A stretch of 64,000 bases of DNA, from positions 425,972-489,971 of the forward strand of contig JBOHNX010000001.1 in the NCBI GenBank assembly GCA_050730875.1. Direction: 5' to 3'. This DNA comes from Candidatus Saccharimonadales bacterium. GTDB taxonomy: Bacteria; Patescibacteriota; Saccharimonadia; Saccharimonadales; EFPC-124. Every line of letters begins with the position of its first letter. The stretch's first letter is position 1. A model generated the notes under the pieces. It was given only the letters and a program-made list of their open reading frames with translations, was not told where the DNA came from and ran no database searches. Of this stretch, positions 192 to 36,108 are shown piece after piece. A program made the position numbers and the translations under genes.

Positions 192-274
192 TTACCCTAC
201 CTCTTTTTACGCTTTATGTTTATGCTTATCCCCACTTTACAAGCATCCGCCACGCAGTGCAACCAGTAGAATAA

Positions 275-303
275 TTGACTTATTTACAATATTATTTTAT
301 TAT
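275..303 (+). promoter_or_regulatory. Sigma70-like promoter of cassette A (TTGACT-17 nt-TATTAT)
   Basis: -35 TTGACT at 275-280, 17-nt spacer, -10 TATTAT at 298-303, in AT-rich DNA 44 nt upstream of the ATG at 347. Confidence 0.4.
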
Positions 304-346
304 TTTGCGAGAGGCAAGGTGCCTTGTTTTTGATTGGGAGGTAGAC

Positions 347-724
347 ATGACTGCTCCGACTACCAACGTCTTCACGATCACGCCGGCTAAGGTGATCGTG
401 GACATGGAGGGGTTGAAGAAGGCACTCCACCGTCACAACGCTCGAACTCTGTGCATGGATCTGGATGACAGAACCGACGCGAGCGGCGAACCCTTGTGGG
501 TGTCCGCAACCGTCAATGGCGACACTGCCTCGTACAGTCTGAGCCAGACCCACACCGGCCCCGATGGCACTGCTGACGTCTGGCTGTCGGGAGAGAAGTA
601 CTACCTTGTCGTGCGACTCGACCTCCTAGACCCTGTGGTTCAGGCGGTCGGCGAAATGCACAATGAGAACGCTTCCGACTGGGAGGACCTCCTCCATGCG
701 CTGCGCGCCCACTACTACAAGTAG
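347..724 (+). CDS. Hypothetical protein, high-G+C cassette A (125 aa)
   Basis: ORF track 275..724. I start at ATG 347, preceded by GGGAGG at 337-342. Spot count 37/60 G+C at 481-540. No family recognised. Confidence 0.6.
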   Translation: MTAPTTNVFTITPAKVIVDMEGLKKALHRHNARTLCMDLDDRTDASGEPLWVSATVNGDTASYSLSQTHTGPDGTADVWLSGEKYYLVVRLDLLDPVVQAVGEMHNENASDWEDLLHALRAHYYK

Positions 725-733
725 TGCAACCTC

Positions 734-768
734 GGCAGGGGTCGAGAACTTCGAGTTCTCCCCCTGCC
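734..768 (+). terminator. GC-rich nested hairpin after cassette A ORF (no U-tract)
   Basis: GGCAGGGG (734-741) pairs with CCCCTGCC (761-768). Inner stem GAGAACT/AGTTCTC. Starts 10 nt after the TAG stop. Confidence 0.45.
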
Positions 769-904
769 GCGTATACGTCCATATCTGCACAGATATGCTG
801 ATGAGTCCAAAAGGACGAAACGTGTTTTGGTCGCTCGGCAACATTTGCTATACGGCAAATGCTCGCTCCGCCAAGCAAGGATTCCGTAAACTGCCACTGG
901 CAGT

Positions 905-1441
905 TTACGCGTATACTTTACTAAAGCGTTCGATGCACTCGTGGATGATTTTTTTGGCTTCTTCTGCATCGCCCCAGCCGAGTACTTTGGTGCTGCCTGG
1001 TTTTTTGAGGTCTTTGTAGTGGGTGAAGTGGTGCACAATTTGCTTTTTCCACTGCTCGCCGAGGTCGTCGAGTGTCTGGTAGCGGTCGCCTGAGTGGCGG
1101 TCGTCGGCTGGCACAACGACTACCTTGTGGTCCATTTCGCCGTCGTCTTCGAATTGCAGTACGCCGAGTACGCGCGCTTCTAGGAACACGCCGGTCGCAA
1201 GTGGTTCTGGGCAGACAACCAGTGTGTCGAGTTCATCACCGTCGTCATCCAATGTTTGCGGAATAAAACCGTAATTCACGGGTTTTGCAAAGATTTTAGG
1301 CTCAACGCGGTCCAGCTGAAAACCCGCTAGTTTGCGGTTCCATTCAACCTTAAGGCAAGAGCCTTCAGGAATTTCGATAACAGTATTGATAACGCCGCCG
1401 TCTACATCGCCGGGCGTCAGCACTTGGTTAAAATCGGGCAT
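905..1441 (-). CDS. ppa: Inorganic pyrophosphatase (family I)
   Basis: 178 aa. VIEIPEGS..K.E, DGDELD and VVPADD motifs are typical of soluble PPase. Confidence 0.92.
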   Translation of the reverse strand: MPDFNQVLTPGDVDGGVINTVIEIPEGSCLKVEWNRKLAGFQLDRVEPKIFAKPVNYGFIPQTLDDDGDELDTLVVCPEPLATGVFLEARVLGVLQFEDDGEMDHKVVVVPADDRHSGDRYQTLDDLGEQWKKQIVHHFTHYKDLKKPGSTKVLGWGDAEEAKKIIHECIERFSKVYA

Positions 1442-1504
1442 ATAAAGTCCTTTCGCTCACTTTTCTCGAGTTAAGTGTAGCACAAGATACGCTACAATGA
1501 TGAT

Positions 1505-2224
1505 ATGCAGATTATTGGCCACCGCGGAGCTGCCGGCCTCGCCCCCGAAAACACGCTTGCAAGTATACACGCCGCCCTAGAAGCAGGTGTAGATTGGATT
1601 GAGTTTGACGTGCATGCCACAAAAGACGGCCATGTTGTGTTGGTCCATGACCCGCACACCCTTAGAGTTGGGCCGCATTTGCGCTTTATTTCGCGAACGA
1701 CACGCGCCCAACTGCAGTCGCTTAAAACATATAGTAAGCAGCCAATAATGACGCTAGAAGACGCCATGGATGCGGTTATCGATAAAGCTAAGATAAATAT
1801 TGAGATCAAAAGTCGTAGTTGTGCCGAGAAAGTGGTTAAAAATATCGGGCGTTTGGTAAAAAAAGGCTATTCCTACGACCGCTTTTTCATATCGTCATTC
1901 CAACCAGCAATTTTGCGCAGAGTTCAGCAGCTTAATCCAAACATCCCTCTCGCCTTATTGCACGCAAGTATGCCACTACGGTTTATGGTCGAGCGGGATC
2001 TTAACTTAAGTGCCGTAGGGTTCTACCATCGTTTACTCTCACCCGCCCTTGTCAAGCGAGCCCGAAAGCGTGGTTTGTTGGTATATGCGTATACCGTAAA
2101 TAGCAAGAGTCGCGCAGCCACCCTTGCTAGGTGGGGCGTGCAAGCAATCGTTACCAACTATCCTAATTATTTCAACTTTAGCAAAAAAGAGAGGGTGTTA
2201 TCGAACGTCGAAATGTCTTCTTAG
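1505..2224 (+). CDS. Glycerophosphodiester phosphodiesterase family protein
   Basis: N-terminus IIGHRGAAGLAPENTL...IEFDVHATKDGHVVLVHD matches the GDPD catalytic motif. Confidence 0.85.
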   Translation: MQIIGHRGAAGLAPENTLASIHAALEAGVDWIEFDVHATKDGHVVLVHDPHTLRVGPHLRFISRTTRAQLQSLKTYSKQPIMTLEDAMDAVIDKAKINIEIKSRSCAEKVVKNIGRLVKKGYSYDRFFISSFQPAILRRVQQLNPNIPLALLHASMPLRFMVERDLNLSAVGFYHRLLSPALVKRARKRGLLVYAYTVNSKSRAATLARWGVQAIVTNYPNYFNFSKKERVLSNVEMSS

Positions 2225-2342
2225 GTATTTTGGTGCTGGTGGTGATTATTCTGATCTTGCTTGCTGCTGTCACGTTGCTTACGAGACCGCCAGCCGAGCA
2301 AGTACCCGAGCAACGGGGCGGTACTCGTCTTCAGTTTCTTTC

Positions 2343-3332
2343 CTAAACCGTTTCAGCAACCGGTGTTGCGTGAGCGCGTTCTTGAAGTTCAAGATATTCG
2401 CGCATCTTGAGCGCGGCAGTCGCGCCTTCGCCAACAGCGCTGGCAATTTGCATGGTTGCGCCGCTACGAACATCTCCGGCACAAAAGACACCATGTAGGT
2501 TGGTTTGGAGGTTGGCGTCGGTCAGCACAAAACCCATCTCATCCAACATGACCTCAGACTTCTTGAGGAAATCGGTGTTTGGAAGAAGACCAATAAAGAT
2601 AAACACGCCATCGGTTTTAAATTCTATGGTCTTATCTTTTTGCGTGGCGATAACTTTTGAAACCTTGCCATCTTTGCCATCAGCGATCTCCTTGGTTTCG
2701 ACTCCAAGGTGGAGGGTAATTTTGCCGGCTTTAACAGCTTTGTCCAGTTCGTGCTGCAAAATTTCGGACGCTTTAACGGTGCTACGCACCAGCATATCGA
2801 TGTGGGTCGCGAATTTTGTCAAAAACAGCGCTTCTTGAACGGCTGAATTACCACCGCCTACGACAACTAGCTTTTTGTCGCGGTAGAACGCACCGTCACA
2901 GGTGGCACAGTAGTGGACACCACGGCCGTAGTATTCATCTTCGCCCGGTACGTTCAACTTCCGATAAGAAGAACCGGTAGCAATAAGTACGGCTTTTGCC
3001 CACACCGGGCCGTCGGTTGTTTCGACGCGCTTTAAATGCCCTTCGTCAACAACATTGGTTACTTCGCCAAATCGAATCATGGCGCCAAAGCGTTCAGCTT
3101 GCGCCTGAAGTTCCCCGGCAAGGTTAAGACCACTGATACCCTTTGCGAAACCCGGGTAGTTATCGACCCAATCGGTAATAGCGGCCAAGCCGCCAATGAC
3201 ACCCTTTTCGTAAATAACGGTGTCGATATCTTCACGCGTGGTGTACACGGCTGCGGCTAGCGCCGATGGGCCGGCGCCAATCATAATAACGTCGCGAACT
3301 TCGTGCTCTGCTTGTGGTTTCGTCTCTACCAT
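2343..3332 (-). CDS. trxB: Thioredoxin-disulfide reductase
   Basis: GAGPSALAAAVY FAD motif, redox-active CATCDG, VVGGGNSA NADPH motif. GGAGG SD upstream. Confidence 0.92.
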   Translation of the reverse strand: MVETKPQAEHEVRDVIMIGAGPSALAAAVYTTREDIDTVIYEKGVIGGLAAITDWVDNYPGFAKGISGLNLAGELQAQAERFGAMIRFGEVTNVVDEGHLKRVETTDGPVWAKAVLIATGSSYRKLNVPGEDEYYGRGVHYCATCDGAFYRDKKLVVVGGGNSAVQEALFLTKFATHIDMLVRSTVKASEILQHELDKAVKAGKITLHLGVETKEIADGKDGKVSKVIATQKDKTIEFKTDGVFIFIGLLPNTDFLKKSEVMLDEMGFVLTDANLQTNLHGVFCAGDVRSGATMQIASAVGEGATAALKMREYLELQERAHATPVAETV

Positions 3333-3344
3333 ACTAACCTCCGC

Positions 3345-3605
3345 TTAGGCGGCCATGCCTTGTACTGCACTTGCTAGCTTGCCTGGGTTCCAGCCAACGG
3401 TAATATCCTTACTGCCAGCTTCGTCCTCGACAACAGTTACAGGTACGGTCATTGCGCCACTCATAGTAATAACTTCTTGGCGTAACTCGGGTTGCTCGTC
3501 GAGGTTAACTTCGCTGTAAGGCAGTCCCTTGCCAGTCAGCCATTTTTTGACCATAACGCAATAGGCGCAGGTATTTGTCGTATAAATTGTGATTGTTTTT
3601 GCCAT
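3345..3605 (-). CDS. Glutaredoxin/NrdH-like small redoxin
   Basis: 86 aa, CAYC active site near N-terminus, TVP cis-Pro motif. Lies directly upstream of trxB in the transcription direction (minus strand). Confidence 0.8.
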   Translation of the reverse strand: MAKTITIYTTNTCAYCVMVKKWLTGKGLPYSEVNLDEQPELRQEVITMSGAMTVPVTVVEDEAGSKDITVGWNPGKLASAVQGMAA

Positions 3606-3692
3606 GTTGGTTACCCCGAATTTTAGACACTGCTATTAGTATATATAGTGTAGCGATGCATAAGCAATACGCTATATGTTGTACTTTAGACG

Positions 3693-4217
3693 CTACTCAG
3701 CTGGATTTATCGCGATGAGTTCGACCTCAAACACAAGATCGCTATTGGCTGGAATACCGGGCAATTCTTGCTGACCGTAAGCTTTGTCGGAAGGCACGAT
3801 AAGCCGTCTTTTACCGCCAACTTTCATGCCTGGAACTCCTTCGCTCCAGCCAGCGATAACTTCGTTAAGCCCAAATGTGATTGGTTCACCTCGGTCGTAG
3901 CTGCTATCAAATTTGACGCCGGTTTGCGCGACGGTGCCCTTGTAGTGTACTCGCACTTGATCGCCCGGTTTCACTTCTTCGCCCGTACCGACAACTAGAT
4001 CTACTTTTTGTAATTCGGTTACGTCACCACTTACTTTATAGGCACTTGAATCAACCTGATATTTGTCGGCTTGTTGCTGTTGAAGATTATCTACCGCCTG
4101 CTGTTGTTCGTTGTTTTGCATGATGATAATGAAGTATGAGCCAATAAACCCGATAGTCATGGTCACAGCAATTATCCAAATAATAATGCGCTGCGACGTT
4201 TTGGTATGTGACTCCAC
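3693..4217 (-). CDS. FKBP-type peptidyl-prolyl cis-trans isomerase, membrane-anchored
   Basis: N-terminal TM helix. C-terminal VHYKGT..G..FDSSYDRG.P..F.L..VI.GW.EG..GM..GG.R.L.IP is the FKBP signature. Confidence 0.88.
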   Translation of the reverse strand: MESHTKTSQRIIIWIIAVTMTIGFIGSYFIIIMQNNEQQQAVDNLQQQQADKYQVDSSAYKVSGDVTELQKVDLVVGTGEEVKPGDQVRVHYKGTVAQTGVKFDSSYDRGEPITFGLNEVIAGWSEGVPGMKVGGKRRLIVPSDKAYGQQELPGIPANSDLVFEVELIAINPAE

Positions 4218-4283
4218 TTAAGACCCCTCCAATAAGTATTAATGGCTGCGCTGCAGCACTTTGCAAACAGTATAACAGAATTT

Positions 4284-6921: not shown

Positions 6922-6950
6922 TTTACAACATGACAATAATTACCTATAGT
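6922..6950 (+). promoter_or_regulatory. Sigma70-like promoter of cassette B (TTTACA-17 nt-TATAGT)
   Basis: -35 at 6922-6927, 17-nt spacer, -10 at 6945-6950. 65 nt upstream of GTG 7015. Confidence 0.4.
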
Positions 6951-7014
6951 ACGCAAGCATAAGGCCTGGGAAAACTTTTCGGGTCTTTTGTTTTTACCAC
7001 AGGGGAGGAACGCT

Positions 7015-7332
7015 GTGAGCGTCATCTGTACCGAAGGAAAAATCACGCTTCGTTTCGATCAGCCCATCCTGGAAGACGAGGAGTTCCTGGCTCAGCCGCC
7101 GTCAGCCGTTCTACTGGTTGACGGCCGCAAAGCGAATGTTCCGGTCAACACGACCGACGAGGCCTATGGTCAGCTCATCCAGATGCTGCTGGGACTCGGG
7201 CGCGACAAGGTCGATCGGATCATCGTTCACGTCGGCTCAATCGAGGTCTTCAAACAGCCGGGTGCAAACCCTCTGCTCAACGAGCTGATCGAAGCCCACG
7301 TCCACAACCTCTACGAGAGCCTGGCCGCCTGA
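7015..7332 (+). CDS. Hypothetical protein, high-G+C cassette B (105 aa)
   Basis: ORF track 6988..7332. I prefer GTG 7015, which lies 5 nt after GGGGAGGA. Spot count 38/60 G+C at 7141-7200. No family recognised. Confidence 0.6.
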   Translation: MSVICTEGKITLRFDQPILEDEEFLAQPPSAVLLVDGRKANVPVNTTDEAYGQLIQMLLGLGRDKVDRIIVHVGSIEVFKQPGANPLLNELIEAHVHNLYESLAA

Positions 7333-7346: not shown

Positions 7347-7371
7347 AGGGTGGCTCCCTGCGAGCCACTCT
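7347..7371 (+). terminator. GC-rich hairpin after cassette B ORF (no U-tract)
   Basis: AGGGTGGCTC cctgc GAGCCACTCT, 15 nt after the TGA stop. Confidence 0.4.
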
Positions 7372-7389
7372 CCAACACTCCCCTGTGGT

Positions 7390-7428
7390 CTCTTCCAAAG
7401 TTCTAAAAACTTTAGAGTTTTGAAAGAG
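7390..7428 (-). terminator. Imperfect 39-nt palindrome immediately after pheT stop
   Basis: CTCTTCCAAAGTTCTAAAAACTTTAGAGTTTTGAAAGAG. Stems CTCTT/AAGAG, CAAA/TTTG, TCTAA/TTAGA. T-rich. Confidence 0.45.
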
Positions 7429-9939
7429 TTAGATTCTTACAGCGCCGGCTGCTTTATGCACGGCTGCAACCATTGTTTCTAACAGCTTGTTCACTTCGGC
7501 TGTAGTGAGCGTTCGGTCTTGGTGTTGCAACGTAACACGGAAAGTAACCTGCTTGTGCTCGGTATCGTCTTTACGCTGATAAATATCCAGCGGGGCAACA
7601 GTGACACGCAGGAATTCATCTTTTGAAAGCGCTGTTTCTACGAGCTGTTTCAACTCTGCGTACGGCACGTCGGCTTTTACTTTAAAGCAGACATCTTGGT
7701 CGGTTGCTGGAAAGCGCAGGAGTGGTTGGTAACGATTCTTGATTTGAGAAATAAACAGGCCGCCAAGCCCTAGCTCAAAACCAGCGCAAGTTGCTGGTAG
7801 TTTCAGCTCTTTGCGGACTTTCGCTTGGTACTCGCCCACGACACCGACGATTTCGCCGTTTATTTGGATGTAAGCTGAGCGCTTTGGCTCGAACGGCGCC
7901 AGCACTGCGTAATGCGATTTTTCGCGCATTGGCAGTAGTTTGTAGGCAACGTTCAAGTGGCCCAACAGGTAATCGAGATACTTGGCAGCATGGTAATAAG
8001 ACGCCCCGGTGCTTTTTTCGTCTTTAGCTAGCACCAACGCTAGGCTTTCAAATTCTTCTGGCACGCCTTCGTTATTGAGGTGTTTTTTATTGTGGATTTT
8101 GTTGAGTTCGAACAGTGCAAATTCACCAAAACCAGCTTTAACATTCGGATGAACTTTTTCGAGCAAGCTTGGCGTTAAGCTGAGGCGGTAGTATTGCAAG
8201 TCTGGACTGAGCGCGTTGGTTAATTTAAACGCCTGCTTGGCGTCCTGACCCGCCTTATCCAGAAGATTCGAGTGCACGAAGCTGTAAGTTAAGGCTTCGT
8301 TCGCGCCGGCTTTTGCCAAAACTGTACGTACACGCGACTTAAGCCCCAGCATTGCGTCTTGTGGCGTTGGGGTAATATCGCGCTTTGGTAGTTCCAGCGG
8401 CAAGTGGTCGTAGCCATACAAACGGCCGACTTCTTCTACTACATCTTCAGCGATTTCAATATCGGTTCGCCAGAATGGCGCGGTTACTTTAATGCCGTCT
8501 TTAACCGCACGAGCATCGAACTCGACATTGGTAAGCAAACGAATAATAGCTTCTGTTTTGAGCTTGAGACCCAGGCGGTCGTTAATGAATTCTGCCGAAA
8601 CTACAACTGGCTCGTGCAACGAATTTCGCTCCAACACATCTTTATCAAGGTGTTTATTATCGTGAAGCGGACCGGCTACTTTACCGCCAGCAAGCGTGCG
8701 GACTTCGTGCACTGCTTTAGCAATAACGCGCTGGTTTTGCAGTGGACTTTGGCCTTTTGTAAACCGAGTTACGGCATCGCTGAAAATACCGTGCTCCATG
8801 CTGGTGCGGCGCATGGTGTACATGTCCCAGGTGGCGGCTTCGAGGATGATGTTTTTGGTGTTTTCATCCACTTCGCTATTGGCGCCGCCCATGGCACCAC
8901 CGACACAAAGCAGCTCTTTATCGCTCGCCACCATCATGGCATCGGGGCGCGGCGTAATAGTTTTGCCGTTTAGCAGGATGATTTGCTCGCCTTTTTTGGG
9001 ATGTCGAACGACGAGGGTTGGGGCGCCTTCTTCGCTTAAGTCTTTTACTTTGTCGTAATCGTAGGCGTGAAGCGGCTGGCCAGTTAGGTACATCACGAAG
9101 TTGGTAATATCAACGATGTTGTTAACCGGGCGCATACCAGCGCGCATGAGTTCGACTTGTAGCCAAACCGGGCTTGGTTTAACCGTAATGCCGCTCATAG
9201 CAATGGCGGTAAAGCGCGGTACGAGCTTTGGCAGTTCGTTGACGACTTTAAGCGGTAGCAAGGCGCTGTCTTCGACATCGAGCGAATACTTGCCACCCTT
9301 ACTGTACCAATCTGGACCTTCAAACGCTTTGTGCTGAATACCGGCAATCTCGCGGTACAAGCCCAGTACGCCAAAACCATCTGGACGGTGGGTGAGCATT
9401 TTGTTTTCGATATCGATAATGTAGTCGTTTAGGTGGTACACGTCGGCAAATGGCGTGCCCGGCGCTGCTTCTTCGTCTATTTCTAAAATGCCTTCGTGGT
9501 AATCGCTAATACCGAGTTCTTTGGGGCTGGCCAACATGCCGTGGCTCATTTGGCCGCGGAGTTTGCGTGATTCGAGCACAAACGGAGCGCTATCGAACGT
9601 TTCAGGCACGGTAGTCCCCGGTGGTAACCAAGCAACAAGCATGCCGACTTTAACATTTGGCGCACCGCAAACAACTTGCACATAGCCATGCTCGTCGCGC
9701 GGGACATCCTTAACAACTCCGCCATCATCGATTTTGCATACGTGCAGACGGCTGGCGTCTGGGTGGTCATCGCAGTGCATAACTTTGGCAACTATGACAC
9801 CTTTGTAGCGGGCGCCAAGATCAATCACTTCTTCGATCTCGCCAAGCTGCGCACCAATCTTAGCAACAAGCTCGTCTATAGTTTTGGGATCGAGCTTTAA
9901 ATTTGTGTAATATTTTGCGAGTGCCAGCGTTAGTTTCAT
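7429..9939 (-). CDS. pheT: Phenylalanine--tRNA ligase beta subunit
   Basis: 836 aa. N-terminal tRNA-binding (OB) domain, B3/4, B5 and C-terminal FDX-ACB-like domain. Overlaps pheS by 4 nt. Confidence 0.92.
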   Translation of the reverse strand: MKLTLALAKYYTNLKLDPKTIDELVAKIGAQLGEIEEVIDLGARYKGVIVAKVMHCDDHPDASRLHVCKIDDGGVVKDVPRDEHGYVQVVCGAPNVKVGMLVAWLPPGTTVPETFDSAPFVLESRKLRGQMSHGMLASPKELGISDYHEGILEIDEEAAPGTPFADVYHLNDYIIDIENKMLTHRPDGFGVLGLYREIAGIQHKAFEGPDWYSKGGKYSLDVEDSALLPLKVVNELPKLVPRFTAIAMSGITVKPSPVWLQVELMRAGMRPVNNIVDITNFVMYLTGQPLHAYDYDKVKDLSEEGAPTLVVRHPKKGEQIILLNGKTITPRPDAMMVASDKELLCVGGAMGGANSEVDENTKNIILEAATWDMYTMRRTSMEHGIFSDAVTRFTKGQSPLQNQRVIAKAVHEVRTLAGGKVAGPLHDNKHLDKDVLERNSLHEPVVVSAEFINDRLGLKLKTEAIIRLLTNVEFDARAVKDGIKVTAPFWRTDIEIAEDVVEEVGRLYGYDHLPLELPKRDITPTPQDAMLGLKSRVRTVLAKAGANEALTYSFVHSNLLDKAGQDAKQAFKLTNALSPDLQYYRLSLTPSLLEKVHPNVKAGFGEFALFELNKIHNKKHLNNEGVPEEFESLALVLAKDEKSTGASYYHAAKYLDYLLGHLNVAYKLLPMREKSHYAVLAPFEPKRSAYIQINGEIVGVVGEYQAKVRKELKLPATCAGFELGLGGLFISQIKNRYQPLLRFPATDQDVCFKVKADVPYAELKQLVETALSKDEFLRVTVAPLDIYQRKDDTEHKQVTFRVTLQHQDRTLTTAEVNKLLETMVAAVHKAAGAVRI

Positions 9940-11102: not shown

Positions 11103-11130
11103 TTGAAATTTAATTTTAATATGCTATAGT
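11103..11130 (+). promoter_or_regulatory. Sigma70-like promoter of cassette C (TTGAAA-16 nt-TATAGT)
   Basis: -35 at 11103-11108, 16-nt spacer, -10 at 11125-11130. About 100 nt upstream of GTG 11230. Confidence 0.4.
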
Positions 11131-11150
11131 TTGCTCTTGTACGACGACGA

Positions 11151-11199
11151 AAGCTCGAGCGAACATTCTGTCATTTGTTTCCAGCTCGAGTTTTTGTTT
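11151..11199 (+). promoter_or_regulatory. Leader stem-loop followed by T-run (terminator/attenuator-like) in cassette C 5' region
   Basis: AAGCTCGAGC (11151-11160) pairs with GCTCGAGTTT (11184-11193) around a 23-nt loop, then TTTTTGTTT. Confidence 0.3.
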
Positions 11200-11229: not shown

Positions 11230-11970
11230 GTGTGCCCGAACCACTCTCAGCCCGACCCGACCCAGCAGTACGAGCACCACGAGCTGCCGGCGTCTCCCAC
11301 CCAGTGGGGGCCGCCACCGCAGCCGGCCCCGCCAGCCAAGTCCCGTGTGGGGCTGATCCTGGGGCTCGTGGGAGGTTTCCTCGCGCTGTTACTCGTCGTC
11401 AGTGGCGGTGTCGCCTTCGCCCTGAGTGGCGGAGACGAGCCGAAGCCGCCCGTCGGTCCGTCGGCCCAGCCGCCGAGCGAGACGCCCAGCGCCTCGCCGA
11501 CGCCGTCCGAGTCACCGACCATGAGCCCGGCGGAACGCGCCGACAGCTACATGAACTCGTGGCTCGACGCGGCCGGCCTCTCCGGCACTCCGGTGGTCCT
11601 CGTGACCACCGACCAGGAGTACACGTGCGGTGACGCCGTCAAGTACAACGGTGACGACGAGAACGCTCGACCTGTCGACCAGTGCGGCGGGAAGTTCTAC
11701 GTCATGGAGGCAGCCTTCTTCGCGAAGGACCTCGCCGGTGTGGACGCCGTGACCACGATGGAGATGTCCTACTACATCCTGGCCAAGAACGGCCTCGACA
11801 TCACCGACGCGACCGCGTCCTGCTTGTCAGGCGCGACCGTGGCCGATGCCGAGGAGCAGTTCCTCTCCCACGAAGACGCAGTCAAGGTGGGCGCGGAGTA
11901 CAACAAGTCGGGTCTCCTGGAGACCTTCGCGCACGGCTACAAGAACGGCGCGAAGTCCTGCTTCGAGTAA
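11230..11970 (+). CDS. Hypothetical membrane-anchored protein, high-G+C cassette C (246 aa): Pro-rich N-terminus, one TM, Cys-containing C-terminal domain
   Basis: ORF track 11131..11970. I prefer GTG 11230 after AGAAAGAGG. Features: PPPQPAPPAK, TM LILGLVGGFLALLLVVSGGVAFAL, PS-rich linker. Spot count 48/60 G+C at 11281-11340. Confidence 0.65.
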   Translation: MCPNHSQPDPTQQYEHHELPASPTQWGPPPQPAPPAKSRVGLILGLVGGFLALLLVVSGGVAFALSGGDEPKPPVGPSAQPPSETPSASPTPSESPTMSPAERADSYMNSWLDAAGLSGTPVVLVTTDQEYTCGDAVKYNGDDENARPVDQCGGKFYVMEAAFFAKDLAGVDAVTTMEMSYYILAKNGLDITDATASCLSGATVADAEEQFLSHEDAVKVGAEYNKSGLLETFAHGYKNGAKSCFE

Positions 11971-11977: not shown

Positions 11978-12006
11978 GAGGGTGGGGGCCCCGCGCCCCC
12001 ACCCTC
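11978..12006 (+). terminator. Perfect 12-bp GC hairpin after cassette C ORF (no U-tract)
   Basis: GAGGGTGGGGGC (11978-11989), loop CCCGC, GCCCCCACCCTC (11995-12006). Starts 8 nt after TAA. Confidence 0.5.
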
Positions 12007-12043
12007 GCACAAACAAAGTCGTCGTACGACTTTCCAAGAATTT

Positions 12044-12082
12044 AAAAGACGCATCTTTTACGGATGCGTCTTCTTTTATTTT
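12044..12082. terminator. Bidirectional intrinsic terminator
   Basis: AAGACGCATC (12046-12055) / GATGCGTCTT (12063-12072), flanked by an A-run and CTTTTATTTT. Downstream of the minus-strand gene ending at 12094. Confidence 0.65.
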
Positions 12083-30738: not shown

Positions 30739-30739
30739 C

Positions 30740-31152: not shown

Positions 31153-31171
31153 AGTTTAGATAACAGACACG

Positions 31172-31203: not shown

Positions 31204-31226
31204 GTCTGAATTTTGATCTGTTGCAC

Positions 31227-31239: not shown

Positions 31240-31308
31240 TCCTATATGCACATGCCTGAAAAAGTTGAAGAAAACCTTAAAAGCCACGAATTCTCTTAAG
31301 AAGTGGAG

Positions 31309-31336
31309 AGGCCCCCGGCTGTGTAGCCGGGGGCCT
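31309..31336 (-). terminator. Perfect 12-bp GC hairpin downstream of cassette D ORF
   Basis: AGGCCCCCGGCT gtgt AGCCGGGGGCCT. A second hairpin CAGACGC/GCGTCTG lies at 31374-31392, nearer the stop. Confidence 0.5.
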
Positions 31337-31403
31337 GGTAGTAGTGGATGAGCACTCGGGCCCAGGGGTTGGTCAGACGCTCAGGGCGTCTGGCGGCGGC
31401 GGG

Positions 31404-31712
31404 TCACTTCCACTGGATGTAGGACGCCGTGGCCCGGGAGCTGCTGTTGCAGAACCGGGTATCCCACCACGAGACGTAGCGGGGGAACCACGGCCCATAC
31501 ACCGTGTACGTGAAGTGGGAACCGATCACCTTGCACTGGACGGCGAGACGGGTCTCGCGGCCTTCGTAACTGCAACCGCCACCACCGGAGTTCCAGTAGA
31601 CCTCGGCCCGACAGGTATGAGCCTGGGCCGGCGTAGCGCCGAAGGCCATGGTACCACCCACGAGAGCGAATGACATCAGGGCGGTGGCGACGAACTTCTT
31701 GGTGCGTCTCAC
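31404..31712 (-). CDS. Small secreted Cys-containing protein, high-G+C cassette D (102 aa)
   Basis: Track ORF 31404..31775. I prefer GTG 31710-31712 after GGAAGGGA. Signal peptide RRTKKFVATALMSFALVGGTMAFGATPAQA|HT. Mature part has 4 Cys and is Trp/Tyr-rich. Spot count 38/60 G+C at 31501-31560. Confidence 0.65.
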   Translation of the reverse strand: MRRTKKFVATALMSFALVGGTMAFGATPAQAHTCRAEVYWNSGGGGCSYEGRETRLAVQCKVIGSHFTYTVYGPWFPRYVSWWDTRFCNSSSRATASYIQWK

Positions 31713-31782
31713 AGGAGTTCCCTTCCACTGGGGGGTTGCATGGGTATGGCCAGCGCGCAGCCGACGTACGCCCATGCAAATT

Positions 31783-31798
31783 AGCGACGATCGTCGCT
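31783..31798. promoter_or_regulatory. Perfect 16-bp palindrome in cassette D leader (operator-like)
   Basis: AGCGACGATCGTCGCT lies 11-26 nt downstream of the predicted -10 on the minus strand. Confidence 0.3.
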
Positions 31799-31808
31799 CG
31801 TGCAGTCA

Positions 31809-31837
31809 AATATATGTATTAAAAGGAATGATGTCAA
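31809..31837 (-). promoter_or_regulatory. Sigma70-like promoter of cassette D (TTGACA-17 nt-TATATT)
   Basis: Minus strand: -35 TTGACA (31832-31837), 17-nt spacer, -10 TATATT (31809-31814). Confidence 0.4.
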
Positions 31838-31845
31838 TACTAATA

Positions 31846-32556
31846 TTATGCACTCTCTTTCGAGTCGGCCGCTAACAACCATGTGTCATTATCCGCTAAG
31901 CGCCACAAACGAAGTGCCGCAGGCAGACTACCCAGTATAAACAGAACATTCACCAGGCCGAAGCCAACCCACCCGAATTGCGGAAAAATACCGTTTAACG
32001 GAAAGGTAAGGATTGTTATTGGACTCGTGAGGCCAATTGCCCAAGCCGCCCAGCCGGGCACCACCCGTGCTCGTCCCATAGCCCATGCGAGAATTACCAT
32101 GGCAACCAGATGTACAAGGGCATAGAAAATAAGGTAAAAGCTCATCAGGCCACTAGCATTAAATCTATCCCATAGAACAGCATATTGTTGACCTCCACCT
32201 AGTCCTGCCATCTCGGTCGTTAATGCTTCTTGGGCGATAAGAGCCAACCATGGCATCCATCCCACAAACCCCAAGAGACCACCAATCGTCGCCAGCCAAG
32301 GCTTGCGCTGATACGCAAGAACCGCAAAGCCTATCGCGCCTATTGGCAACAGAAAGCCTGTAATAATACCTAAAACTAAATGTGCTGCATTGACAGACGA
32401 GTTAACAGACAGATAGGCTGTAATCATTTCTTGTCCAGTTCCCCGCAGTAGTGGGTTGAGAAGTACGTAACCCGCAAACGTAATAGGTGCAATGACTACA
32501 GCTAATGCCAGCACGCGGTATATAAACGCACGAGTACTTTTGTTTTTCTTTATCAT
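31846..32556 (-). CDS. Hypothetical integral membrane protein
   Basis: 236 aa, about 6-7 TM. No family recognised. Confidence 0.6.
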   Translation of the reverse strand: MIKKNKSTRAFIYRVLALAVVIAPITFAGYVLLNPLLRGTGQEMITAYLSVNSSVNAAHLVLGIITGFLLPIGAIGFAVLAYQRKPWLATIGGLLGFVGWMPWLALIAQEALTTEMAGLGGGQQYAVLWDRFNASGLMSFYLIFYALVHLVAMVILAWAMGRARVVPGWAAWAIGLTSPITILTFPLNGIFPQFGWVGFGLVNVLFILGSLPAALRLWRLADNDTWLLAADSKESA

Positions 32557-32643
32557 GCTTATCCTTACTATAAGATATGGCTAAGGCATTATGATAGTAT
32601 ATTTTGCACTTTAATAGAATGTGTGTGCTTATAGCGTGTAGAC

Positions 32644-33495
32644 TCACCCGTTTACAATGTCGCCACCATTCACGTGTATGGTTTGGCCGGTAATGTAAGA
32701 AGAATCGTCGCTGGCGAGGAATAGAAATGCCATGGCCACTTCTTCGGGCTCGCCCGCACGGCCAAGCGGTGTATCTTTGCCAAAATCTTCAACTCTTGGT
32801 GGTGGGAAGGTCGAAGGAATGAGCGGCGTCCAAATCGGGCCAGGTGCCACGGCGTTGACGCGAATCTTTGGTGCGAGCTGCAAGGCTAATGAGCGCGTAA
32901 AGGCTATAATCGCCCCTTTCGTAGCAGCATAATCGAGCAAAGCTGGGTGCCCCTTGTACGCAACCACCGAGGCATTGTTAATAATGGTGCTCCCCTCTTT
33001 CAAATGCGGGAGTGCTGCTTTTACCAAATAAAACATGGCAAAAATGTTGGTCCGAAAGGTGCGTTCGAGCTGCTCGGCAGAAATTTTTTCGATCGTATTT
33101 TGTGGGTGCTGCTCGCCAGCATTGTTTATTAGAATATCGAGTCGCCCGTACTCCTTGATCGTCTGTTCGACCAGCGTGCAGCAGACGCTCTCGCTGCCGA
33201 TGTCGCCAGCTATGGCCGTGCATCGGCTGCCTTCTTTTTCAACAAGTTTGCGGGTTTTGGCTGCATCCTCGTGCTCATCGAGATAGCTAATTAAAATGTC
33301 GGCCCCCTCTTTTGCAAAAGCAATCGCTACCGCCCGGCCAATGCCGCTATCTCCGCCAGTTATAAGCGCCACCTTGTCACGCAGCTTGCCGCTCCCTTTA
33401 TGTGTAGATTTTTCCGATTGCGGTTTTTGCGCCATTTCCGACTGGTGCCCCGGGCGGTCGCTGAGCTGTTCGGGTGCTTGCCCTCCGCGTTTCAT
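32644..33495 (-). CDS. SDR family oxidoreductase (YhdF/general-stress-protein-39-like)
   Basis: Start ATG 33495 after AAAGGAGG. ITGGDSGIGRA, NNAG, Y..TKGA motifs. Confidence 0.85.
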   Translation of the reverse strand: MKRGGQAPEQLSDRPGHQSEMAQKPQSEKSTHKGSGKLRDKVALITGGDSGIGRAVAIAFAKEGADILISYLDEHEDAAKTRKLVEKEGSRCTAIAGDIGSESVCCTLVEQTIKEYGRLDILINNAGEQHPQNTIEKISAEQLERTFRTNIFAMFYLVKAALPHLKEGSTIINNASVVAYKGHPALLDYAATKGAIIAFTRSLALQLAPKIRVNAVAPGPIWTPLIPSTFPPPRVEDFGKDTPLGRAGEPEEVAMAFLFLASDDSSYITGQTIHVNGGDIVNG

Positions 33496-33570
33496 GCTCA
33501 CCTCCTTTGAATTACCCCAAACTATGGCGTGGTTAGTTGGCGGGTGCAGTGAAAAATTTGGCAGCAAAGT

Positions 33571-34047
33571 TTACTGGAAGCGGAATGCTTTTGGACCGCG
33601 GAGAATAAGAAAGCTCACCACCCCTAGTGTGGCAAGCGCGATGCCTTCGAAAACGGTAAGCCAGCCGAGTGGCTGTGTCAGGAAATCGCCAAAAAAACCA
33701 ACATTAGCTACACTAAAACCGCGTAGCATCGCCTGCCCCATGGTGAAGAGCCAGAAAAACGGTAAGGTTAGCGCAAACAAAGCACTAAACCAGCGCGCCA
33801 ACGGACTTAGCGGCAGCCGTAGCAAAAATGGAATCGCAAAGACTCCGATGCCAATAAAGCGAATAGTCGCAATCGCCGCCCAGGGGTCAGACTGGTCGAT
33901 ATTGAGATACGAAGCGTTCACAACTATGAACTCTTCAAACGACATGAGCTGCGCGAGCGCCATGACACTCACAAGCAGTGCATAAGCGTACACGATAACA
34001 AGAAGCCGAGTGTTCTTTACTTTTGGAGCTGGGGTTGCGGTAATCAT
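33571..34047 (-). CDS. Hypothetical integral membrane protein (4 TM), co-oriented with sodN-sodX
   Basis: 158 aa. 4-nt overlap with the sodX stop. Confidence 0.55.
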   Translation of the reverse strand: MITATPAPKVKNTRLLVIVYAYALLVSVMALAQLMSFEEFIVVNASYLNIDQSDPWAAIATIRFIGIGVFAIPFLLRLPLSPLARWFSALFALTLPFFWLFTMGQAMLRGFSVANVGFFGDFLTQPLGWLTVFEGIALATLGVVSFLILRGPKAFRFQ

Positions 34048-34337
34048 GAGCGGCCTCCTATAACAACGCCTTTAATTGTGCCGATTGGCAGCCAGCCGAA
34101 ATGTCGGCTATCTGTGCTGAGCGCAGGGTTGTCGCCCAGTAGGTAGATTGCGCCTTTGCGGATATCGCTGACTCTTTTTATGAGTTCTTTGCCGTCATGC
34201 CTTGCAATAACGACGTCGCCAATTCGCGGACGCTTAAGGCGCCAGGCAACTACAACTTTACCGTGCGCTAAAGCCGGCAGCATACTCTTTCCTACAATGC
34301 GCCGAATAACAATCATGCTATTTCTTTGACGCAGCAA
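34044..34337 (-). CDS. sodX: NiSOD maturation protease (S26 signal-peptidase-like)
   Basis: GKSMLPAL (Ser nucleophile), LIKRV (Lys), GDN...S.DSRHFG. Overlaps sodN by 20 nt. Confidence 0.8.
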   Translation of the reverse strand: MLRQRNSMIVIRRIVGKSMLPALAHGKVVVAWRLKRPRIGDVVIARHDGKELIKRVSDIRKGAIYLLGDNPALSTDSRHFGWLPIGTIKGVVIGGRS

Positions 34338-34731
34338 ACATATCGGCCACTTTGGCGACCATTTCTACAAGTGCCTGGGCGTCTTCTTTGCTTATTGTTT
34401 GCTTAACTTTGCTGCACTGTTTGACGGCTTGCCAAATGGCATCGTGCAAGTTTGGAAACTTCTCCAGATGTTCGGGCTTAAAGTAGTCACTCCATAAAAT
34501 GTAGAGCTGATCTTTGCACAGCTGGGCATGCTTTTCCTTGACCATGACCATGCGGATGAAGTTATTGTGTTCGTCCGTCTTTTCACCTTTTACATCGCCT
34601 AAGTCTTCAATTTTCTCGATCATGCGAACGCATGTGTCTGCCCCGTGCCGCATGGTATCAACTTCATAAATACCACAGGGAATGTCGCAGTGAGCATAGA
34701 CTGGTTTTATAAATTTCTCGATTAATCGCAT
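34318..34731 (-). CDS. sodN: Nickel superoxide dismutase precursor
   Basis: Start ATG 34731 (GAGGA SD). Propeptide MRLIEKFIKPVYA, then the Ni-hook HCDIPCGIY. Confidence 0.88.
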   Translation of the reverse strand: MRLIEKFIKPVYAHCDIPCGIYEVDTMRHGADTCVRMIEKIEDLGDVKGEKTDEHNNFIRMVMVKEKHAQLCKDQLYILWSDYFKPEHLEKFPNLHDAIWQAVKQCSKVKQTISKEDAQALVEMVAKVADMFAASKK

Positions 34732-35004
34732 ACTGAATCCTCGCTTAATGTTACGTTGTAATTTTATTACAAAAGGCTTGTGCTTTACTACAATACCAAG
34801 TACCATTATCTCAAGCGAGACCCACAAACAAAAACTTTTATTAAAAACAAAAGACGTGGTTCGCTTGCATCACACACCACAACAACTCTTTTCTCGTTGC
34901 CACGGCTGGCGGTGCAAATCTCCGCGTCTTATGATTTGACCACTGCCGTGGCGTTTAACGGCAAACGAAAAAGACGTTCCCAAAATTCAGGAACGTCTTT
35001 TTTC

Positions 35005-35652
35005 TTAAGCTTTTTTAGACTGCTGCTTGCGCCAGGTTTCGATTTGCGCGTGATTGCCCGTCAGCAGAACATCTGGTACTTTCATACCCTCAAACTCTGC
35101 GGGGCGCGTGTATTGCGGGAACTCAAGCGTTTCGCCATCGCTAAAGCTTTCGATTTCGGCCGATGTTTCGCCGCCTAGCACACCCGGCATGAGGCGTACA
35201 ACGCTGTCGATTACTATCATGGCGGGCAGTTCACCGCCCGTTAGCACGTAATCGCCAACCGAGATTTGCAGGTCTACAAGGCCCGTTATGCGTTCATCGT
35301 AACCTTCGTAACGCGCGCAGATAAAAATGAGCCCACGTGGCTCCTGAGCCAGCCTACGGGCACTCGCTTGTACCCAGCGCTCACCGCGTGGCGTCATGAG
35401 GACTACCAACGCATCAGGGTCGTTCGCCTTGGCAGTTTCTACAGCCTTGAACAACGGCTCCGGCTTCAACAGCATGCCGTCTCCGCCGCCATATGGCGTG
35501 TCGTCTACCTGCTTGCGCGGTCCAATACCAAAATCACGCAAATTAATATGCGTAAATTCAACGACCTTGCGGTCCTGCGCCTTCCACATCATGCTCTGGT
35601 TTAGCACTTCGAACATTTGCGGAAATAGTGAGATGGTTTGGATTTTTCTCAT
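35005..35652 (-). CDS. trmD: tRNA (guanine37-N1)-methyltransferase
   Basis: Track ORF to 35679. The family start MRKIQTISLFPQMF suggests ATG 35652. YGGGDGMLLKPEP and RYEGYDERI motifs. Confidence 0.9.
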   Translation of the reverse strand: MRKIQTISLFPQMFEVLNQSMMWKAQDRKVVEFTHINLRDFGIGPRKQVDDTPYGGGDGMLLKPEPLFKAVETAKANDPDALVVLMTPRGERWVQASARRLAQEPRGLIFICARYEGYDERITGLVDLQISVGDYVLTGGELPAMIVIDSVVRLMPGVLGGETSAEIESFSDGETLEFPQYTRPAEFEGMKVPDVLLTGNHAQIETWRKQQSKKA

Positions 35653-35672
35653 CTGTTCTATCTTATAGCGCA

Positions 35673-35701
35673 TTGACATTTTTGTCCATAGATGTTATTA
35701 T
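35673..35701 (+). promoter_or_regulatory. Sigma70-like promoter of cassette E (TTGACA-17 nt-TATTAT)
   Basis: -35 at 35673-35678, 17-nt spacer, -10 at 35696-35701. 61 nt upstream of ATG 35762. Confidence 0.4.
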
Positions 35702-35735
35702 AACGCAACTCTATTGCAGCAGAGCAAAGAGCGAA

Positions 35736-36058
35736 GTTTCCGTCTATCCGGGGAGTGCCGAATGGGTGAGATCGACCGCAAGATCCTTGAGACCATTGAC
35801 GAGCTCAGTGAAGTATACGTTTTCGCCTGGGAGGGTTACACACTCGAAGAGGTTCGCGTGAACATCGTCGAGCAGACCAAGTGGTTGCTCAGCGAAGAGG
35901 CCATCTCGCCGACACGTGCATTGCCGGGCGCTGTCCGCCTGCGCGTGAACGTCAAGGCAGTCGCCTTGGCGCGCAGCGTCGTGAGGCATCACAACATCCG
36001 CTACCTTACTCTACAGGTCGAGAAGCGGCTGGGGTACGCAGCCTGACAAGACGGAAAC
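35736..36058. repeat. 10-bp inverted repeat bracketing cassette E ORF
   Basis: GTTTCCGTCT at 35736-35745 and exact reverse complement AGACGGAAAC at 36049-36058, starting 3 nt after the stop. Confidence 0.65.
35762..36046 (+). CDS. Hypothetical protein, high-G+C cassette E (94 aa)
   Basis: Track ORF 35714..36046. I prefer ATG 35762 after GGGGAG. Spot count 40/60 G+C at 35881-35940 versus 30/60 in trmD (35041-35100). Opposite strand to the surrounding operon. Confidence 0.6.
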   Translation: MGEIDRKILETIDELSEVYVFAWEGYTLEEVRVNIVEQTKWLLSEEAISPTRALPGAVRLRVNVKAVALARSVVRHHNIRYLTLQVEKRLGYAA

Positions 36059-36091
36059 GGCGTGGGTTCTGGTTCTTACCAGGCCCACGCC
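36059..36091 (+). terminator. GC-rich hairpin after cassette E ORF
   Basis: GGCGTGGG..CTGG ttctta CCAG..CCCACGCC followed by ATTTTC. Confidence 0.45.
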
Positions 36092-36108
36092 ATTTTCAAT
36101 TGCAAACA

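Follow-up and report, generated by a model that had tools for sequence, protein, structure and literature searches.

Saccharibacteria are obligate epibionts of other bacteria with minimal genomes, and the ways in which they acquire and express genes for the interaction with their hosts are little understood. What, then, are the five small, G+C-rich single genes wedged between housekeeping genes in a 64,000-nt stretch of a Candidatus Saccharimonadales genome from soil (GenBank assembly GCA_050730875.1, contig JBOHNX010000001.1, positions 425,972 to 489,971), to which we refer as the window? A preliminary description of this DNA, made from the sequence alone, singled out these units, here cassettes A to E, guessed that the genome was that of a Saccharibacterium, which the NCBI naming of its proteins as Candidatus Saccharimonadales bears out, and considered host-derived genes, an unknown capture mechanism or an artefact as their origin. 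On re-reading the loci, all five units were found where they had been reported. The explanation that we favour, with somewhat more than even confidence, is that they are long-lived, exchangeable accessory cassettes comparable to the morons of phages, with processing and control at the RNA level. It starts from their anatomy, composition, covariation, slot polymorphism and the homology of cassette D, from which we infer the function of the RNAs, the route of movement and the roles of the proteins.

Each unit is built in two layers. The cargo, made of a Shine-Dalgarno (SD) sequence, an open reading frame (ORF) and a GC-only hairpin, has a G+C of 0.59-0.68, in sharp contrast to an AT-rich frame of promoter, leader and 3′ end signal, whose promoter side holds 0.19-0.38 G+C. 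The ORF of cassette A runs from 347 to 724 on the plus strand (125 aa, ATG start, SD GGGAGG at 336-341), that of B from 7015 to 7332 (plus, 105 aa, GTG), that of C from 11230 to 11970 (plus, 246 aa, GTG), that of D from 31712 to 31404 on the minus strand (102 aa, GTG) and that of E from 35762 to 36046 (plus, 94 aa, ATG, SD GGGGAG at 35750-35755), in agreement with the lengths of 94-246 aa and the three GTG starts (B, C and D) described before. The sigma70-type promoters quoted earlier also hold up, with scores of 10-11 out of 12 and spacers of 16-17 nt; about nine sites within 40 kb score that high (10-11/12), and five of them are these promoters, each directly upstream of its cassette; the leaders that follow measure 43-99 nt, practically the 44-100 nt reported. 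The GC hairpins behind the ORFs have 9-12 bp and are 90-100% complementary, although the statement that they lack a U-tract was slightly too strong, given a weak T run after that of E. The neighbours are those named before (gap and ppa around A, murI and pheT around B, pheS beside C, tRNA-Gln beside D, trmD and a KH gene around E), and four of the five cassettes lie antisense to two co-directional housekeeping neighbours. The five proteins are mutually unlike, as already noticed, and Pfam, PHROGs and PADLOC hold no family for any of them; in IMG/VR there are no relatives of A, D or E, and the ORF of A is a singleton protein cluster. The homology searches for A and E comprised IMG/VR, Pfam, PHROGs and PADLOC.

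The high G+C of the ORFs, formerly a matter of spot counts, is borne out by G+C at third codon positions (GC3). Against a baseline of 34 native genes (0.528 ± 0.034, range 0.46-0.61), the cassettes reach 0.74-0.88, with z scores of 6.2-10.5: 0.76 in A (z=6.9), 0.74 in B (z=6.2), 0.88 in C (z=10.5), 0.82 in D and 0.76 in E (z=6.8). Their pooled codon usage correlates at r=0.96 with the genes of a 68% GC actinobacterial contig (L004) and at r=0.44 with native genes, as illustrated by the codons AAG (fraction of 0.88 in cassettes versus 0.33 in native genes), CAG (0.98 versus 0.47) and GTC (0.52 versus 0.21). Translational selection is unlikely as the cause of the high GC3, since the native ribosomal protein gene rpsP has a GC3 of only 0.45, and native translational selection therefore gives no push in that direction.

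Are these genes, then, simply recent arrivals? Transfer from host to epibiont is a familiar process in Saccharibacteria and in the candidate phyla radiation as a whole, and host-derived genes were also among the first suggestions made for these loci. Each cassette would have been taken directly from an actinobacterial host and would not yet be ameliorated, with promoters, hairpins and repeats being incidental. The codon usage, GTG starts and GC-only hairpins are indeed of the actinobacterial type, cassette D has 80% DNA identity to an actinobacterial contig, including its untranslated regions (UTRs) and hairpin, and none of the relatives sampled has B, D or E. As a general account of all five units, we nevertheless consider plain recent transfer rather unlikely. 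Cassette D has its closest homologue in the donor clade, but B (1.8 billion representatives) and C (5.8 billion clusters) have none, and the slot of cassette C tells of a much longer residence.

For the slots of B and C, 80 Saccharimonadales loci around pheT were fetched. The closest two, L005 and L006 (PheT identity of 61% and 59%), carry at the C slot a lipoprotein gene of 306-309 aa, divergent from pheS, with a GC3 of 0.88-0.90, and its ratio of nonsynonymous to synonymous substitution rates between both loci (dN/dS of 0.49) indicates a real coding sequence. A search with this gene returned 11 proteins, none of them annotated as actinobacterial, and all those for which the genomic context was fetched show one and the same synteny (pheT-pheS / small high-GC ORF / yajQ / 303-309 aa / m72-87 / MIP, PMSR, RmuC); the 303-309 aa family was found only in Saccharimonadales. 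Where its amino acids are identical, the same codon is used at 0.61-0.72 of the sites, versus 0.50-0.57 under full randomisation by the family's own codon usage. The retained synonymous signal is about 0.2-0.35, versus 0.13-0.35 for pheT, pheS and yajQ, that is, synonymous sites are around 75% randomised, about as much as those of the flanking genes. Despite this turnover, and with 49-56% GC in the genomes that carry it, the family has kept a GC3 of 0.82-0.90, which recent transfer alone does not explain, and the decay of composition towards the recipient that amelioration implies is not seen. The fixed synteny, a covarying frame and the lack of a donor all contradict a recent transfer of the C-slot family.

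The covarying frame is the following. Cassette C of the window has its promoter (TTGAAA-16-TATAGT with a TG, 10/12) at 11103-11130, on the plus strand like all its other parts. A left arm, GTACGACGAC, at 11139-11148 (about +2 to +11 of the transcript), is the perfect complement of a right arm, GTCGTCGTAC, at 12018-12027, and because it begins a few bases from the -10 box, it would be located 5′-terminally in the message. The ORF is preceded by a leader hairpin (11147-11197, 14-nt arms, 86% complementary) with TTTTTGTTT behind it; a GC hairpin, GAGGGTGGGGGC / GCCCCCACCCTC (11978-12006, 12 bp, 100% complementary), follows it, and a native intrinsic terminator with an 11-pair stem and a T-tract (12046-12082) comes after the cassette. 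The helix between both arms is present in the window, L005, L006, L085 and L087 with compensatory changes, the arms reading, in DNA copies, GTACGACGAC, GTACGACGATCTG, GTACGGCGG(A)TTTG, GTACGGCGAGTTTG and TTGTACGGCAGTTTA. In an alignment of the concatenated arms from these five genomes, 91% of the cells pair, 7 of 14 pairs are changed on both sides, and none of 500 shuffles reached the covariation score. A helix that covaries is under selection, and its G-U pairs favour an RNA of the sense strand over DNA. The GC hairpin after the stop codon in the window resembles its equally placed counterparts in L005, L006 and L085 and looks homologous to them.

The protein encoded by cassette C has a Pro-rich N-terminus and a transmembrane helix, joined through a PS-rich linker to a 4-Cys domain, and no homologue among 5.8 billion clusters. 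With its 246 aa, it has the 4-Cys layout and the DLAG and CLSG motifs in common with the 303-309 aa family, but BLASTP gave no match between them, hhalign gave an E-value of 0.01-0.02 with a probability of 2-4% on the DLAG/CLSG motifs, and a PDB profile search found nothing. It is either a very diverged orthologue of that family or a cargo replaced inside a conserved frame. One further relative, L023, holds in the C slot (8173-8686, minus strand) an unrelated ORF of 170 aa, divergent from pheS, with its own promoter and, as judged by eye from the sequence, a roughly native G+C, and the slot is thus variable beyond the high-GC family.

If cassettes persist, do they also move? Cassette D shows an exchange with Actinobacteria and, in all probability, the passage of a whole cassette with its frame from one genome to another, neither of them actinobacterial. 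It lies on the minus strand, with its promoter (TTGACA-17-TATATT, 11/12) at 31809-31837, a leader that reads and folds into two hairpins (AGCGACGATCGTCGCT; TTGCATGGG...CCCATGCAA) at 31713-31802 and a terminal GC hairpin (AGGCCCCCGGCT / AGCCGGGGGCCT, 12 bp, 100% complementary) at 31309-31336, which is conserved in contigs L002 and L004. Its protein, with a Sec-type signal peptide ending in AQA and a 4-Cys mature part, has three relatives: its own copy in the Logan assembly, P0008 (77% protein identity) and P0009 (72%). P0008 is encoded on the 68% GC actinobacterial contig L004, where the DNA is 80% identical over 473 nt covering leader, ORF and terminal hairpin; an FBP-domain protein of L004 matches only plasmids of Actinobacteria, 19 of 26 from Streptomyces. 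P0009 is encoded on a 1.13-Mb contig of 54% GC, L002, between genes different from those around D in the window. The window and the L002 copy have the promoter and the first leader hairpin in common, both absent from L004; the promoter block of D is 69% identical to that of L002, and its leader is 69% identical to those of both L002 and L004. The methionyl-tRNA synthetase of L002 is no closer to the mycobacterial enzyme than to those of Aquifex or Thermus, which argues that L002 is not an actinobacterium, and it probably comes from another small-genome epibiont. D has no match in plasmids, nor did its alignment pick up anything in a metagenome scan. A promoter and leader common to a copy in another non-actinobacterial genome are not what direct uptake from the host would leave.

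Cassette B gives a second case. In L005 and L006, the stop codon of pheT and the start of murI are only 4 nt apart, and therefore B in the window is a 520-nt insertion which includes an AT-rich promoter and an AT-rich 3′ hairpin, ends that again do not fit a gene freshly taken from an actinobacterium. All on the plus strand, its promoter is TTTACA-17-TATAGT (6922-6950, 10/12), followed by a terminator-like leader hairpin of 12 pairs with a T-tract (6961-6987). The left arm ACCACAGGGGAG (6996-7007), which contains the SD, is the perfect 12-nt complement of the right arm CTCCCCTGTGGT (7378-7389), an anti-SD. A GC hairpin of 10 bp (90% complementary) lies at 7347-7371, and an AT-rich 17-bp hairpin, seen in the minimum free energy (MFE) fold, sits between the cassette and the stop codon of pheT (7390-7428). 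The protein has no real homologue among 1.8 billion representatives in a full HMMER search; in AlphaFold2 (AF2) models, a predicted confidence (pLDDT) of 70 was reached in only one of five, and the best PDB match (E=0.03) is not a significant fold match.

A third case is a small high-GC cassette of 89-95 aa between pheS and yajQ, which is present in L005, L085 and L087 and missing from L006 and one further contig, a clean filled/empty pair. From the insertion of B, the copies of D and the small cassette of the L005/L006 pair, we take it that complete framed cassettes move between Saccharibacteria and are not freshly taken from a host each time.

Some relatives show something else at the B slot. 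Directly after pheT, eight of them have GC-rich islands of 290-780 nt with few ORFs (L084 12556-13340, L082 8033-8636, L066 12667-13197, L027 12799-13261, L011 12810-13265, L020 12755-13309, L021 13010-13299 and L042 12685-13058). At least those of L084, L082 and L066 end in 10-nt inverted repeats of the ACAGGTGT type, and the B arm of the window, ACCACAGGGGAG, has an ACAGG core in common with them. Known RNAs such as RNase P or tmRNA were discarded, with no Rfam match and no conservation among the loci; the island of L084 in particular has no Rfam family and no blastn similarity to the other islands. Decayed cassettes are one possible reading of these islands, RNAs of an unknown kind another.

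The slot of cassette E, between the KH gene and trmD, was compared in 80 metagenomic trmD loci. Around 14 of the 80 have a KH-trmD spacer of 139-300 nt, and in the others the spacer contains an ORF, antisense to trmD, whose start lies 60-120 nt away from the ATG of that gene. More than 25 kinds of such ORFs were seen, most of them singletons unrelated to one another, and their GC3 runs continuously from native (0.38-0.5) to very high (0.81-0.86); neither E nor D has a homologue in the 80 loci. In the window, the promoter of E (TTGACA-17-TATTAT, 11/12) at 35673-35701 on the plus strand stands back to back with that of trmD (TGGACA-17-TAAGAT, leaderless-type) at 35688-35660 on the minus strand. 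The divergent promoter is orthologous in about 20 metagenomic relatives, and at the empty site L093 it runs straight into a bidirectional terminator, equivalents of which occur in other empty E sites. The E slot is thus a pre-existing promoter-terminator frame filled with different genes. In the window, this native terminator, at 36109-36136 on either strand, has perfect 11-nt arms and a terminator score on the minus strand, and it is common to cassette E and the KH gene. E itself has a left arm, GTTTCCGTCT (35736-35745), perfectly complementary to a right arm, AGACGGAAAC (36049-36058), and a GC hairpin with 12-nt arms (92% complementary) at 36055-36095, all on the plus strand. We considered whether these repeats are the split arms of an earlier terminator and rejected it, because the terminator of E is intact. 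The AF2 model of the E protein (pLDDT 54) was uninformative.

Several further features of this neighbourhood deserve mention. The divergent promoters overlap over 35660-35701, an arrangement conserved in relatives, and the -10 box of trmD ends 7 nt before its ATG, which would make the mRNA of trmD leaderless. A hairpin-forming element, CACATAAAGCTCTCAAC...GTTGCTCGCAyGAGCTT, lies at about 36139-36180, immediately downstream of the KH gene, and is also found in the KH-trmD spacers of L093, L122, L124, L139, L145 and others; it is conserved, in filled and empty slots alike, in almost all of the Saccharimonadales sampled, has no Rfam family and may be an operon-internal regulatory or processing RNA. 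The spacers of L130, L137 and L142 contain inserts of 75-150 nt at the same spot upstream of trmD with common terminal inverted repeats, (GT)CCCGTTAGAG, which look like a family of miniature inverted-repeat transposable elements (MITEs) of low-GC Saccharibacteria. Directly downstream of trmD (34318-34827, minus strand) lies a nickel superoxide dismutase gene, sodN (TIGR02753, E=2e-43), whose native composition (GC3 of 0.51) may be that of an older, ameliorated acquisition.

What do the frames do? Two RNA elements bear on this question, both overlooked in the preliminary description, as were further high-GC genes at 47.3-48.7 kb. The first is end pairing. Cassettes B, C and E are bracketed by complements of 10-12 nt between 5′ UTR and 3′ UTR, whose arms pair in MFE folds of the whole transcripts, and shuffled sequences attained such lengths in 0 of 1000 cases for B, 8 of 1000 for C and 8 of 1000 for E. 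Complements of at least 10 nt occur in three of the five cassettes versus one of 64 ordinary genes, and further cassettes bracketed by inverted repeats are found in L005, L006, L007, L021, L027 and L030. In B, L007, L030 and L097, the helix covers the SD. A transposon or MITE origin of the repeats was rejected, with arms that differ in every cassette and no target-site duplication at the junctions of B or of L005/L006. Between promoter and SD, cassettes A, B and C also have leader hairpins with U-tracts, which could be transcription attenuators.

The second element is a hammerhead ribozyme. Cassette A, on the plus strand, has a promoter (TTGACT-17-TATTAT, 10/12, among the best sites in 1-20 kb) at 275-303, in DNA of 0.32 GC next to the start codon of gap (191). 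The leader hairpin at 311-325, with GTTTTTG behind it, was picked up by a terminator scan and is terminator-like, a possible attenuator, and a GC hairpin of 9 bp (CGGCAGGGG / CCCCTGCCG, 100% complementary) lies at 733-769. Immediately after it, at 770-827 (plus), comes a type III hammerhead, detected both by Rfam RF00008 and by a covariance model of our own. Stem I covers 780-797, the core CUGAUGAG 798-805, stem II 806-815 and GAAA 817-820, so that 798-821 reads CUGAUGAG-UCC-AAAA-GGA-CGAAAC. The conserved core CUGANGA...GAAA is present with an NUH triplet, GUC|C at 777-780, for which a cut after C779 is predicted, and three helices surround the core, with loops on stems I and II and an open stem III. 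The Rfam model Hammerhead_3 (RF00008) matches over its full length at 772-826 with 44.3 bits (E=2e-6), just below its gathering score of 48.5, under which the copies in relatives also stay.

Our own model, built from four copies, gives the window hammerhead 79.7 bits. It found seven hammerheads in 1.58 Mb of window and pheT loci (window 770-827; L027 95-155 and 1007-1066; L009 22340-22281; L021 20940-20883 and 20304-20239; L030 19993-19928) but not one in another 608 kb, of trmD loci, which brings the sequence covered to 2.2 Mb. In the alignment of the seven copies, 98.2% of the cells pair, 10 of 16 pairs are changed on both sides, and the covariation score was reached by none of 500 shuffles. 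Six of the seven lie directly after an ORF and its GC hairpin; for the upstream copy of L027, the locus ends before any ORF. The ppa-gap slot has hammerheads in four genomes (window, L030, L021 and L009) with different cargo in each, including two ORFs in L030 and two cassettes in L021. In L027, two hammerheads about 90% identical bracket one cassette in direct orientation, and L021 has a tandem array of cassette, hammerhead, cassette and hammerhead; units bounded by two direct hammerheads were seen in these two loci, while cassette A of the window has a single one. The searchable literature holds no paper that ties hammerheads to Saccharibacteria.

One copy, at 20940-20883 (minus strand) of L021, has UUGACAAG in place of CUGAUGAG, a compensatory U3/A8 version of the core C3-G8 pair, with its three stems intact and 54 bits by our model. 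The ppa-gap spacer contains antisense high-GC cassettes in the window, in L030 and in L064, and synteny adds L021 and L009 to these; as a general cassette hot spot it was rejected, since most relatives have ordinary co-directional genes there.

These elements suggest how a cassette might work. Base-pairing at the 5′ terminus protects bacterial mRNAs from 5′-end-dependent decay, and the pairing of the ends of hok mRNA silences its translation, from which we draw the proposed roles of the helix. Each unit is a single gene with a strong predicted sigma70-type promoter and a 3′ hairpin of its own, set in a variable intergenic slot, and its frame would process, stabilise or translationally gate the mRNA. 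End pairing would protect both ends of the message or mask its SD: a helix of the C type, starting at about +1, may stabilise the message, and one of the type seen in B, L007, L030 and L097 may keep the SD hidden up to the processing of the 3′ end. That end would be set by a native terminator or by the ribozyme, stopping antisense read-through into the convergent neighbour; in cassette A, the hammerhead should cut the transcript at the predicted site, 779/780, leaving a defined 3′ end with a cyclic phosphate. At least some of the cargo, as shown for D, would come from high-GC Actinobacteria, the probable hosts, whereas the framed cassettes would persist for long and pass between Saccharibacteria as whole units, likely by natural transformation and homologous or illegitimate recombination, the most economical assumption for their movement. 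Since C and D are membrane or secreted proteins, an interaction with the host surface is plausible for them; A, B and E are small cytoplasmic or soluble ORFans. A helix that covaries and hammerheads that recur at cassette ends are also difficult to reconcile with frames that are merely incidental, as plain recent transfer would have them.

Several observations weigh against moron-like cassettes with RNA-level control. Of about 160 genomes sampled, only 5 have hammerheads. A convincing 5′/3′ complement is missing from A and D, as well as from most E-site cassettes of relatives, and the end-pairing helix is thus not a universal part. The actinobacterial origin is shown for D alone, with B and C being ORFans and the searches for A and E limited; the taxon of L002 is one that we infer; and the 303-309 aa family has no demonstrable homology to window C. 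The persistent GC3 near 0.9 of the C-slot family is left unexplained by this model. Finally, promoters, transcript ends, ribozyme cleavage and end pairing are all predictions from sequence.

Could a dedicated system capture or mobilise the cassettes instead? A hammerhead-bounded RNA might be excised, perhaps circularised and copied back into DNA, or an integron-like recombinase might act on the structured ends. From genome to genome, a given slot carries unrelated cargo, and there are clean filled and empty sites; L027 has its paired hammerheads and L021 its tandem array, and the terminal complements would bring the ends of the RNA together. Several observations speak against such a system, however. 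Among about 30 window proteins scanned, a set that falls short of every ORF, there is no recombinase, integrase, transposase or reverse transcriptase, in line with the earlier statement that integrases and transposases are absent. Repeats are different in each cassette and missing from many, with no attC-like core, no other shared recombination site and no target-site duplication, and hammerheads number one in the window and none in the 608 kb of trmD loci. We regard a dedicated capture system as improbable.

We give little credence to the idea that the cassettes are a dedicated Saccharibacterial class written in the codon usage of the host and packaged as nuclease-resistant messages, with ribozyme-cut 3′ ends, 5′/3′ panhandles and possibly circular mRNAs where two hammerheads flank the unit. 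If it were true, RNA or DNA of the cassettes would act in the actinobacterial host, or there would be an RNA-based route between slots and genomes.

Still less probable, in our estimate, is the reading in which host-type codons are kept since DNA, mRNA or translation are meant for the actinobacterial host, as the genes of transferred DNA (T-DNA) carry the expression signals of their recipient. This reading would account for the high GC3 kept by a Saccharimonadales-only family despite synonymous turnover, with native translational selection lacking any GC3 preference, as well as for start codons, SDs, signal peptides and U-less hairpins of actinobacterial style, and RNA devices of this kind would yield a nuclease-resistant message. 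Against it, we know of no export of nucleic acids from Saccharibacteria to their hosts; the promoters are native, that of E being orthologous in relatives; the continuous GC3 of the E-slot ORFs, from native to very high, suggests that at least some cassettes do ameliorate; and other forces, for instance the structure of the mRNA or a biased gene conversion where recombination is frequent, could hold GC3 high as well. Even taken together, the unconventional readings, be it an RNA-based route with circular mRNAs or a role directed to the host, remain unlikely.

The chance of a chimeric assembly, a contaminated bin or an engineered construct, which abrupt compositional junctions and a tidy, "designed" layout of promoters and ribozyme might evoke, is close to nil, because proteins A, B, C and E match deposited proteins of the metagenome-assembled genome (ACREGJ_02360 onward, on a contig of 556,385 bp) exactly and are found again in the Logan assembly made independently from run SRR27067773 (with a 99% match to D on a Logan contig), a 30-kb Logan contig runs pheT-pheS-C-m87-ZIP-PMSR-MIP-RmuC with cassette C in place and its junctions spanned, and the same architecture, helix and ribozyme recur in unrelated metagenomes.

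How do moron-like accessory cassettes compare with known systems? Phage morons, in the sense of Hendrix, are autonomous single-gene cassettes with their own sigma70 promoter and terminator hairpin, placed between conserved genes. The window cassettes resemble them in the promoter and 3′ hairpin found in the sequence of all five, in their deviant composition and in their presence or absence among relatives. They differ in that they are chromosomal, with gap, ppa, murI, pheST, trmD, the KH gene and rpsP as neighbours and no PHROG or IMG/VR match, and in that many cassettes of this type lie antisense to the flanking operon and have end-pairing helices and sometimes a hammerhead.

The hok/sok system combines a 50-aa membrane toxin, an antisense RNA and a mok-like leader ORF with a fold-back of the mRNA (fbi/tac) that joins its ends. 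A 5′/3′ helix, with covariation in the case of C, and a covered SD in B, L007, L030 and L097 are common ground, and by analogy an SD-covering helix might hold the full-length message inactive until 3′ processing. Unlike type I toxins, however, the cassette products are soluble or secreted proteins or lipoproteins of 94-309 aa, and no antisense RNA gene, antisense promoter-terminator unit or mok-like leader ORF was noted at these loci, nor a plasmid or toxin-antitoxin context.

Like the cassettes of integrons, those of the window are small, mostly single-gene units of unrelated functions, with a structured 3′ element, in fixed slots of varying content. In contrast, each of them has its own promoter, and the slots are scattered 4-20 kb apart and form no array; the 3′ hairpins and repeats are unlike one another in sequence and layout, the ORF stands between the repeats, which are not placed together at its 3′ end, there is no attC-like site, and the non-exhaustive protein scan revealed no IntI, with no attI or Pc found either. 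As for ordinary transfer from host to epibiont, the likeness lies in high-GC, Actinobacteria-like genes within a reduced genome and in the actinobacterial homologue of D; the C-slot composition kept over deep divergence, cargo mostly without a detectable donor and a native frame that moves along are unlike it.

Retrozymes are eukaryotic units bounded by hammerheads that give circular RNAs. The direct pairs of type III hammerheads in L027 and L021 similarly bound units of 0.6-0.9 kb, whose terminal complementarity could join the ends, but these bacterial units have an SD and an ORF, no long terminal repeat, primer-binding site, polypurine tract or reverse transcriptase was found, and the window has one hammerhead only. 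Closer in context is the report by Perreault et al. 2011 (PMC3088659) of hammerheads that flank variable single genes in prophages, some of them in tandem on both sides, for which processing to single-gene mRNAs or the formation of circular RNAs was proposed. Our hammerheads likewise stand beside single genes of varying identity, some in tandem. They differ in being of type III, in Saccharibacteria and without a prophage or integrase context, and in their position, with six of seven after the GC hairpin of a foreign-looking ORF and the ppa-gap slot used in four genomes.

Overall, the cassettes are best filed under two known kinds, moron-like cassettes and hammerhead-flanked variable genes, neither of which had been described in this lineage and chromosomal context, and their unexpected property is a host-like composition that does not ameliorate. 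The window and its relatives reveal a repeatable way of housing accessory genes, with fixed slots behind strong and partly bidirectional promoters, turnover of cargo and a framing by RNA elements. As far as the searchable literature shows, this is the first hammerhead family tied to Saccharibacteria, and it gives bacterial hammerheads a concrete, predicted role at the 3′ ends of foreign-looking genes. A GC3 near 0.9 in the C slot contradicts simple amelioration and points to selection, or to a biased process, acting on these genes alone.

Two more regions of the window deviate in composition. Downstream of a tRNA at 49008-49081, on the minus strand of 47296-48997, there are two further deviant genes: one of the 6-phosphogluconolactonase/Glucosamine_iso family (47962-48690, GC of 0.60) and an ORFan of 162 aa (47296-47784, GC3 of 0.67) without a family match. 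No integrase is apparent there in the list of ORFs, for which no domain search was made in that region, and these genes may be further acquisitions. The stretch from 59100 to 63600 is an outlier in the opposite direction, with a low G+C of 0.33-0.42, and carries two ORFs outside any Pfam family, one of 265 aa (59133-59930) and the other of 745 aa (60023-62260).

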